DNA from: an uncultured Candidatus Saccharibacteria bacterium
GTDB lineage: Bacteria > Patescibacteriota > Minisyncoccia > Minisyncoccales > CG1-02-41-26
Assembly: GCA_964383715.1 (NCBI GenBank)
Contig: CAYLHU010000001.1
Span: forward strand, 17,733-77,974
DNA: 60,242 bases
Direction: 5' to 3'
The notes beneath the pieces were generated by a model. That model made no database searches and had not been told where the DNA came from. It saw only the letters and a list, made by a program, of their open reading frames with translations. Each line of letters opens with the position of its first letter. Within the stretch, counting starts at the first letter, position 1. Position numbers and translations under genes: made by a program. Of the stretch, positions 59,898 through 60,242 are shown one piece after another.

Positions 59898-60242
59898 ATG
59901 GTAATAAAAATTAATACTATTCGGCATTCTCTATCCCATATTCTCGCTTATGCGGTTCAGGAATTATATCCCGGAACCAAGTTTGGCATTGGTCCTGCTA
60001 TTGAAAATGGCTTTTATTACGATTTTGATATGATAAACTCGATTGCTTTAGATTCTTTGCCAAAAATTGAAAAAAAGATGAAAGAGCTGATTAAAAAGGA
60101 CATTAAGTTCAGAAAAAAAATCGTATCTCGAACAGAATCTAAAAAAATATTCAGGAACCAACCGTATAAATCGGAAATAATTAAGGACTTGATAAAGGGC
60201 GATGAAGCTAAAGCTTCATCTTCCCCCCTCGCTAACGCTCGG
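59898..60242 (+). CDS. thrS: Threonine--tRNA ligase, 5' part, running off the window; no N-terminal TGS domain
   Basis: I translated from the ATG at 59898: [44 protein letters not shown]. This is the ThrRS editing-domain signature. Confidence 0.85.
   Translation, partial: [115 protein letters not shown]

Follow-up and report, generated by a model that had tools for sequence, protein, structure and literature searches.

How a hairpin-forming repeat comes to lie inside the reading frame of a gene for an aminoacyl-tRNA synthetase, and whether it is translated there, are the questions raised by the end of the stretch of DNA considered here. The window, by which is meant the whole 60,242 nucleotides (nt) analysed (contig CAYLHU010000001.1 of assembly GCA_964383715.1, positions 17,733 to 77,974 of the forward strand, from an uncultured Candidatus Saccharibacteria bacterium), ends within thrS, the gene for threonyl-tRNA synthetase (ThrRS). 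The explanation that best fits the observations as a whole, to which a joint probability of about 0.85 is given, is that a segment of thrS is one copy of a short dispersed repeat family of Paceibacteria-type bacteria of the Candidate Phyla Radiation (CPR), inserted in frame into an intact gene after the fashion of the Rickettsia palindromic elements (RPEs). The features concerned are these:

59898 to 60242, plus strand: 5' part of thrS, codons 1-115, translated from the ATG at 59898.
60198 to 60242, plus strand: the portion, as far as the window edge, of a 48-nt repeat lying in frame, delimited by a 48-nt codon-aligned gap against contigs L007 and L008 of the nearest relatives and by a 45/48 match to the family consensus.
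60201 to 60220, no strand assigned: hairpin 1, GATGAAGCT-AA-AGCTTCATC, a perfect 9-bp stem with a 2-nt loop, encoding D E A K A S S.
60230 to 60241, plus strand: the 12-mer CGCTAACGCTCG of the conserved element tail, common to two intergenic copies in this genome.
60231 to 60242, no strand assigned: 5' arm and loop of hairpin 2 (GCTAAC gctcg GTTAGC), defined from L001:13704-13720, a contig that continues past the window, and from folding.

The original prediction had placed a GATGA hairpin at 60201-60220, followed by a word that recurs near hairpins at 50750 and 50982, within a thrS frame open as far as the window edge. Each part was upheld: the stem is perfect over 9 bp, no stop is met from the ATG to the edge, and the 12-mer occurs three times in the window (50750, 50982 and 60230) against 0.03 expected. 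At 50750 and 50982 it abuts a hairpin of opposite polarity (AAGATGA..TCATCGC), whereas in thrS the polarity is GCGATGA..TCATCTT and the spacer TTCCCCCCT precedes the 12-mer. The exact thrS-type tail pattern has a single occurrence in the window, with 0 chance matches expected. Positions 60198-60242 read GGCGATGAAGCTAAAGCTTCATCTTCCCCCCTCGCTAACGCTCGG, and the full element, the final 3 nt of which lie beyond the edge, is GGC GAT GAA GCT AAA GCT TCA TCT TCC CCC CTC GCT AAC GCT CGG TTA, encoding G101-L116 with an uncertainty of ~3 nt at its boundaries. It is ~50% GC in a gene of 34% GC. Folded as RNA it is predicted to form two hairpins (-19.7 kcal/mol, z = -4.2), the second of which has a 6-bp stem straddling the window end, with its 3' arm outside; this second hairpin is peculiar to the thrS copy, the canonical tail ending in GGGTA and pairing weakly. 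A search of the window with Rfam 15 at the gathering threshold returned seven tRNAs only and no other RNA family.

A protein search with the 115-amino acid (aa) ThrRS fragment of the window returned short fragments only. Contigs extending past the edge were found by exact-protein look-up of the adjacent DnaE, and eight independent assemblies (five from ENA and three from JGI, of different samples) proved identical to the window over the shared sequence, with 0 mismatches in 3715 shared nt for L001 and the same insert junction in all eight. Past the edge L001 continues CGG TTA GCA CAA CAA GGA AAT AAA ATT ACG ATT TAC, and the frame runs on into the ThrRS catalytic core without stop or frameshift, as the proposed insertion had led one to expect. 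In seven of the eight assemblies thrS is a complete open reading frame (ORF) of 599 aa (L001:13371-15170), and in the eighth an ORF of 531 aa is open at the contig end. The 599-aa product carries Pfam domains PF07973 (tRNA_SAD), PF00587 (tRNA-synt_2b) and PF03129 (HGTP_anticodon) and matches the ThrRS entries 6vu9, 1nyq and 1qf6 of the PDB with E = 1e-156. There is no TGS domain, the N-terminus being directly the N2 editing domain with its HSLSH motif at residues 10-14. Both N2 motifs (HxxxH and DxCxGxH), the class II core with its zinc ligands and the anticodon-binding domain are present, and the residues invariant among 24 relatives (H10, H14, D133, C135, H139, C297, H348 and H474) are all kept. 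Judged on its sequence, thrS is neither a pseudogene nor a misassembly.

Comparison with relatives identifies the segment as additional. The nearest ThrRS proteins (P0001 and P0002) are 78-80% identical and of 581 aa, against 599 aa here, and their locus is syntenic, with dnaE-thrS followed further downstream by miaB-miaA-fba-gatB. The original prediction held that homologues from repeat-free relatives would lack the peptide, and this is what the repeat-poor relative gave: it reads DLIKD-KQGNKISIY at the insert site, without the extra residues. In the codon-aligned DNA the relatives have ATA AAA GAC / AAA CAG GGA and the genome of the window has exactly 48 nt (16 codons) more. GATGA hairpins number 0-1 per 18 kb in the syntenic relative against 0.35-0.52 per kb in the genome of the window. 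The alignment indicates that the thrS segment is an insertion made after the split from the closest sequenced relative.

Other proteins of this genome are also longer than their orthologues on L008. Ribosomal protein S16 (52417-52971) has 184 aa, compared with 104 aa there, and ends in a C-terminal extension of low complexity; TrmD (51194-51934) carries an extra KLKNNPSTSLRVDG, and MiaB, Fba and GatB of L001 have extra segments. The extra segments in TrmD, KH, GatB and Fba were considered as copies of the same element and rejected, their DNA forming weak hairpins at most and having no family signature.

The family to which the thrS segment is assigned has the consensus unit (A)G(T/G)C-GATGA[stem-loop-stem]TCATC-TTCACCCTTCGCTAACGCTCGG-GTA and occurs in two size classes, with cores of 39 and 42 nt that correspond to units of 45 and 48 nt. 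The former contains a 17-nt hairpin (GATGAAC-TTCG-GTTCATC) and the latter one of 20 nt. The thrS copy is identical to the 48-nt consensus at 45 of 48 positions (alignment A2), and its hairpin is the same as that of a copy from Candidatus Nealsonbacteria (L012). A census was made with the pattern TCATCTTCNCCNNTCGNTAACGCTCGG, for which ~0.02 chance matches were expected, by scanning one genome per GTDB species together with metagenome contigs. The GTDB species genomes yielded 13 copies at 11 loci, including Candidatus Nealsonbacteria (among them the complete genome CP179888.1), Candidatus Paceibacter normanii and several metagenome-assembled genomes (MAGs), and at least 119 metagenome contigs carried the element. 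Viral contigs scanned for it held 0 copies. The counts of copies given below refer to the matches listed, among which 121 copies had distinct contexts. Searching proteins with a synthetic tandem peptide turned up only 18 candidates and was not informative.

Head-to-tail arrays are found, with a spacing of mostly 45, 48 or 51 nt. Three in-frame tandem copies at 45- or 48-nt spacing lie within single ORFs at L015:2595-2732, L025:727-855, L058:9266-9382 and L084:6355-6471, giving peptide repeats of the (VADEGVASSSPFANAR)x3 type.

In the ThrRS structure the extra residues fall, by alignment with PDB entries, between residues 167 and 168 of the Staphylococcus aureus enzyme (1nyq). They follow a helix with a conserved PYK motif and precede the strand leading to DLC(R/K)GxH; here the 16 codons stand before NKITIYESG, the strand running up to the editing motif DLCKGPH. 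When the 599-aa protein was modelled with AlphaFold2 (predicted template-modelling score, pTM, 0.72), the predicted local distance difference test (pLDDT) values were 74-96 throughout the N2 domain except at residues 102-119, which correspond to the insert, lie between a confident helix and the strand 122-128 and have pLDDT <50. A proxy model of another ThrRS (P0031) behaved in the same low-confidence manner at its insert. Both the alignment and the model place the insert in a loop of the N2 editing domain between helix and strand, and according to the model that loop would be disordered.

In 121 Paceibacteria ThrRS proteins that loop is where lineage-specific inserts chiefly fall. P0031 has in the same loop the copy ATC GAT GAA CTT TCG TTC ATC TCC CCC CTT CGC TCC GCT CGG GTG, flanked by the direct repeat ATYGATGAA, and P0113 has a diverged copy there in opposite orientation; from their sequences the inserts of P0031 and P0113 are to be counted as further copies of the same superfamily, giving at least two such. 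At a different site, in the catalytic domain, the ThrRS P0098 (GCA_041643395.1) contains VDELRSSSPFVNARV, the DNA of which (GTC GATGAAC-TTCG-GTTCATC TTCACCCTTCGTTAACGCTCGG GTA) is the same element in the same frame. Inserts of other kinds also occur in ThrRS. A second recurrent one, LQLHSGQA(KEII), is found past DLCKGPHxKST, after residues corresponding to 143-147 of the present protein, and is sometimes duplicated (in P0053, P0083, P0085, P0089, P0103, P0104, P0018, P0019, P0033, P0113 and P0119), and P0013 and P0049 have inserts rich in GC, for instance VRPPLRPLPPTRPRTT; both types are probably other repeat families translated in frame.

The same element is present in frame in many unrelated genes of several genomes. 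Among the 121 copies 58 were internal to long ORFs (at least 30 codons on each side), 32 lay near an ORF end and 31 were in no ORF of at least 100 aa. Most of the internal copies (46/58) were read in the GAT GAA frame, giving DExxxSSSPFANARV, while ten lay in opposite orientation and used its single open frame (TRALAKGEDExxxSS) and two were in the +1 frame; the remaining frames of the element contain TGA, TAG or TAA. Host ORFs include GpsA (NAD-dependent glycerol-3-phosphate dehydrogenase), a RecJ-like DHH/DHHA1 protein, a class-I Val-type tRNA synthetase, HolA (DNA polymerase III delta), a DegT-family aminotransferase, a DUF5667 protein and membrane proteins, and the Pfam domains of host proteins continue on either side of the insert. 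Five copies with ORFs abutting both sides were examined, and all five lay between two different complete genes (S8/L6, nucleotidyltransferase/NAD(P)HX dehydratase, PilM/pilin and, twice, an ORF of unknown function/PBP2); among these five no gene interrupted out of frame was seen. Several features that characterise RPE-like elements were found, namely many copies at non-homologous sites, in-frame and stop-free placement in genes, and orthologous sites that are empty in relatives.

Conservation of a peptide in unrelated proteins raises the alternative that the peptide itself is the selected unit, DExxxSSSPFANARV having been recruited as a functional motif for binding, modification or degradation. 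The highly conserved SSSPFANAR tail, the 46 of 58 internal copies in coding orientation and the fact that the same ThrRS loop has been struck at least three times speak for it. The conservation of the tail is, however, partly imposed by the search pattern, and the variation in the stem points the other way. Among 30 distinct copies of 48 nt the five outer pairs of the stem did not vary, and three of the four inner pairs (9:18, 10:17 and 11:16) had changed on both sides, from G-C to A-T, C-G or T-A and from C-G to A-T. Overall 92.6% of stem cells were paired, and the covariation observed was reached in 0 of 500 shuffles. The encoded residues vary freely with the stem (A/T/P/D and A/V/G/S, as in DEAKASS, DETKVSS, DEPKGSS and DEDKSSS) while the DNA stays complementary. 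The ten internal copies in opposite orientation encode the unrelated TRALAKGEDE.., about a quarter of the copies are in no long ORF, and the five examined between ORFs were all intergenic. Because the stem covaries while the residues change, and because copies occur in opposite orientation and between genes, the peptide does not appear to be the selected unit, and of the rivals considered this one survives best while being quite unlikely. The pattern indicates instead that selection is on the hairpin and tail as DNA or RNA.

Whether the element is translated at all is a separate matter. The original prediction had set translation as an in-frame insertion, in the manner of RPEs, beside removal by some other mechanism, and ribosome bypassing or excision from the mRNA would be examples of the latter. 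A resemblance to known bypass inserts (the 'hop' of phage T4 gene 60 and the GC-rich byps of yeast mitochondria) does exist in that these are also short, GC-richer, hairpin-bearing mobile inserts in essential genes, and the thrS element has just such a raised GC content in an AT-rich gene. Inserts of the bypass kind break the frame or carry stop codons, and they depend on take-off and landing codons that match. In thrS and in all genic copies, in contrast, the frame is open through the element; in thrS no stop comes after the would-be take-off site, and the units are multiples of 3. Neither bypassing nor splicing imposes a constraint on frame or on stops, whereas here there are units of 45 and 48 nt, 46 plus 10 of 58 internal copies in a stop-free frame and tandems in frame, and all five candidate 'split' cases are truly intergenic. 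Removal is disfavoured because of these unit lengths, the tandem spacings, the use of stop-free frames and the failure of any of the five candidates to split a gene; it is judged very improbable, even with a homologous mobile bypass element family on record, as outlined in bioRxiv 10.1101/2022.08.31.505936. With the frame and length constraints and an intact 599-aa gene, translation is favoured, and we infer that transcription and translation of the insert yield a disordered surface loop of 16 residues, which ThrRS tolerates.

Several points weigh against the reading of a translated, in-frame copy in an intact gene, and some of them bear on a further alternative, that of an assembly artefact (a misjoin) or a pseudogene broken past the window. 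An NCBI-derived ThrRS call is only 431 aa long and starts at Met169, and the 138,724-bp contig that bears it also encodes this DnaE; a gap, a frameshift or a different gene call in that one NCBI assembly may account for this. Some Logan contigs stop short of the element by 40-300 nt, and assemblers may struggle here. Against an artefact, the eight assemblies came from different samples and pipelines (ENA megahit and JGI) with an identical junction and, in seven, an intact ORF, and ThrRS is essential and here has all functional residues conserved, so that this alternative is given even less credence than removal. Translation we infer from frame conservation alone. No transposase or other mobilising gene was seen among the window ORFs of at least 150 aa, and tblastn with three Y1 transposase queries of approximate sequence against 1.1 Mb of element-bearing loci found none. 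Within-species polymorphism for presence or absence, which would define the exact ends and any target duplication, was not found. Because two genic copies served to build the census pattern and several samples contain the same organisms, and with the matches listed for at least 119 contigs, the genic fraction is approximate only.

N-terminal ThrRS fragments on long contigs were considered as genes split by the element and rejected. One, P0122, was examined at contig level and is due to a frameshift at DLCxGPH, and the fragments P0194 and P0207 also stop at that motif; all three are probably long-read errors with no relation to the element. On a 180-kb contig (L140:4001-6296) thrS is divided into ORFs of 119 and 654 aa by a frameshift at DLCxGPH, and this split, like those of P0194 and P0207, probably reflects homopolymer errors of long-read assemblies.

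That the segment is no insertion, being instead an ancestral loop or a local expansion (by slippage or duplication) since lost in relatives, is the least credible alternative, for loop length does vary in many Paceibacteria ThrRS, but the same 45-48-nt sequence recurs in unrelated genes, at sites that are not homologous, and in other genomes, its hairpin type and 12-mer are common to intergenic copies in the window, and the nearest relative is cleanly without it.

If the segment is taken as an inserted repeat, the ends of the element give some indication of how it might move. Before GATGA the flank is A in 90%, G in 93%, T/G in 99% and C in 99% of copies, with a preceding T in 47%; the full GTAG is found in ~13 of 63 single copies (~20%) and at all tandem junctions. 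The 3' flank is biased to GTA-nnT-GAA (A in 94% at +8) and resembles the element start GTCGATGAA. The two ends, GKCGATGA... and ...GCTCGGGTA, do not form inverted repeats, and the only feature resembling a direct repeat is that between GTCGATGAA and the 3' flank GTAnnTGAA. These characters suggest, by analogy, hairpin elements of the type of REP sequences (palindromes that are extragenic and repetitive) with their REP-associated tyrosine transposases (RAYTs), or of the IS200/IS605 type, rather than MITEs (transposable elements of the miniature inverted-repeat kind). As to mechanism, the best guess is that the element is non-autonomous and is moved in trans by an enzyme that recognises hairpins, one of REP/RAYT or IS200/IS605 type. 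Re-insertion at, or slippage between, GTCGATGAA at the start and GTAnnTGAA as the usual 3' flank could then give rise to head-to-tail arrays. Since the length is a multiple of three and there is exactly one stop-free frame per strand, insertions in those frames at permissive loops would survive, and out-of-frame or badly placed ones would be lost to selection.

Among known systems the RPEs provide the closest parallel. They are described (Ogata et al. 2000 and 2002, in the account of PMC10969869) as elements of ~100-150 bp in ten Rickettsia-specific families, with 44 in-frame integrations in genes of R. conorii. On that account the likeness consists in a dispersed hairpin-forming repeat without coding capacity of its own that lies in frame in unrelated housekeeping genes, including those of aminoacyl-tRNA synthetases, is stop-free in the frame used, probably occupies structurally permissive positions and has intergenic copies too. 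The present element differs in its length of 45-48 nt, in having one strong 7-9-bp hairpin with a conserved 25-nt tail, in its in-frame head-to-tail arrays and in its host, Patescibacteria (CPR) as opposed to the alphaproteobacterial Rickettsia. Membership in RPE-1 to RPE-10 was considered and rejected on length (45-48 nt) and host, a separation that follows the description of RPEs and not a comparison of sequences. REPs are palindromes tagged GTAG/CGTC and extragenic by definition (PMC3733652). The element shares with them a short imperfect palindrome with a tag directly 5' of the stem ((T)AG(T/G)C-GATGA), a stem kept by compensatory changes and many copies per genome, the sister copies of the window being intergenic and clustered; it differs in showing the full GTAG in only ~20% of single copies, in being at least 48% intragenic and in having a 25-nt non-palindromic tail within the unit, and no RAYT gene was found among the window ORFs of at least 150 aa or in the 1.1 Mb of loci searched. 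With MITEs (the Coxiella QMITE, intragenic ERIC and Correia elements) it shares the character of a non-autonomous repeat that lies in ORFs and adds peptide segments (PMC10969869, PMC5896051). MITEs have terminal inverted repeats (TIRs) and target site duplications (TSDs) and are usually >100 bp, whereas the element is without TIRs and a TSD is not demonstrable. Palindrome-associated elements of the IS200/IS605 type (PATEs) have hairpin-based ends, no TIRs and no obvious TSD. The hairpin ends, the lack of TIRs and a possible preference at one end (3' flank nnTGAA) are reminiscent of PATEs, a lead only; the unit here is just 45-48 nt with one strong hairpin, and no TnpA was detected. A search of the literature, subscription journals being outside its scope, found no account of palindromic repeats lying in frame in CPR, Patescibacteria or Parcubacteria. 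The family is apparently different from the RPEs, much shorter and undescribed.

A bolder proposal, offered tentatively and thought rather unlikely, is that the 45/48-nt unit, with its autonomous look, is a mobile module adapted to coding sequence, one of the shortest known and suited to CPR genomes that are ~90% coding. Its length divisible by three and its one open frame per strand would then have evolved to colonise coding genomes, and the hairpin might be recognised by some enzyme or act at the mRNA level, through ribosome pausing or RNase III recruitment in essential genes. If this were true the module would be a general source of lineage-specific protein insertions in CPR, and its tryptic peptide SSSPFANAR a community-wide proteomic marker. 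The preferred reading, an RPE-like repeat carried in frame, has consequences of its own. Selfish repeats translated within housekeeping proteins have so far been treated as a peculiarity of Rickettsia, and an unrelated, three-fold shorter family would do likewise in Patescibacteria, in tRNA synthetases, the clamp-loader subunit HolA of DNA polymerase III, a RecJ-like protein and GpsA, in some cases as tandem arrays kept in frame. It would provide a concrete molecular source for lineage-specific insertions in CPR proteins and a tractable case of selection for a hairpin inside coding sequence. A warning for annotation and assembly also follows, in that spurious ORFs stay open across such elements, assemblies may break at them and proteins are lengthened by them. 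It is a testable prediction that SSSPFANAR-type peptides should be present in groundwater metaproteomes.

The window contains a sister family of hairpins. GATGA..TCATC occurs 24 times against 0.41 expected from shuffles, and ~21 of the 24 are real, three being nested matches in one AT-rich site. The GATGA hairpins other than that of thrS are intergenic and mostly clustered, and the sister family is defined by a two-hairpin unit of ~51 nt, GGCGATGA..TCATCTTGAC(T/C)C + GCCCAC-TTCG-GTGGGC. It has the 5' tag and the hairpin polarity in common with the thrS element, and two sister copies have the 12-mer. The arrays and single hairpins, none with a strand assigned, are as follows:

9640 to 9920: intergenic array of sister hairpins at 9679, 9798, 9845 and 9896.
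17300 to 17700: sister units of ~51 nt (GGCGATGA..TCATCTTGAC + GCCCACTTCGTGGGC) on both sides of tRNA-Gln.
31539 to 31559: single sister hairpin just upstream of rsmH (MraW).
47827 to 47847: single sister hairpin near the second tRNA-Trp copy.
49928 to 49995: two sister hairpins (49928 and 49976) in the spacer from the isochorismatase gene to tRNA-Thr, which holds two small ORFs.
50538 to 51180: sister array from tRNA-Phe/Thr to trmD, with GATGA hairpins at 50584, 50657, 50731, 50824, 50962, 51007 and 51056.

The last array (50538-51180) is intergenic and upstream of tRNA-Phe/Thr, has the 12-mer at 50750 and 50982 and includes a 232-nt tandem duplication. The hairpin array, of 650 nt, is abutted by an 87-nt 'tRNA-Phe' called by ARAGORN at 50448-50534 on the minus strand, with anticodon AAA and an Rfam tRNA score of 35.8 bits; this odd tRNA may have a long variable arm, contain an intron or be a mis-call. 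The tRNA-Gln at 17419-17490 (minus strand) is embedded in sister repeats, where a spurious ORF of 166 aa (17172-17672), without a Pfam match, is kept open across the tRNA. A gene of the PD-(D/E)XK nuclease family (9923-10669, minus strand) ends 7 nt from the array at 9640-9916 and is the only nuclease gene adjoining an array in the window; the proximity is probably coincidental or terminator-like.

Two further hairpin families with flanking A/T runs are terminator-like, AAAAATGAC(G/T)GGGTTAAACCC..GTCATTTTT and AAATTACGGAGGTCAGACCTCCGTAATTT (repeat labels D4 and D12). Their positions, again without strand, are:

13749-13787, 15039-15077, 19139-19177, 28295-28445, 45155-45493, 46000-46079 and 47689-47769: terminator-like hairpin families.

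The region 46000-48410 contains a duplication of ~1.7 kb (family D1, 92% identity over 300 nt) with a DUF3800 gene between the copies, and the duplication carries tRNA-Trp(CCA) twice, at 46208-46283 and 47949-48022. The AT-rich spacers upstream of dnaE and thrS (56409-56499 and 59700-59890) are made up of repeats of the CTAAATCCTAAA type, after which comes the inverted complement TTTAGGATTTG, and form long imperfect palindromes (D7, D10 and I19). The DnaE of a related genome (L142:1-3004, GCA_030689825.1) has 1432 aa and includes an intein (PF14890) with an endonuclease-like segment. Finally, an 18-nt tandem repeat (CTTCGTCAGAGCTTCCAC-like, at least five copies) is found at 8508-8630, inside an ORF (8477-9106) without a Pfam match.

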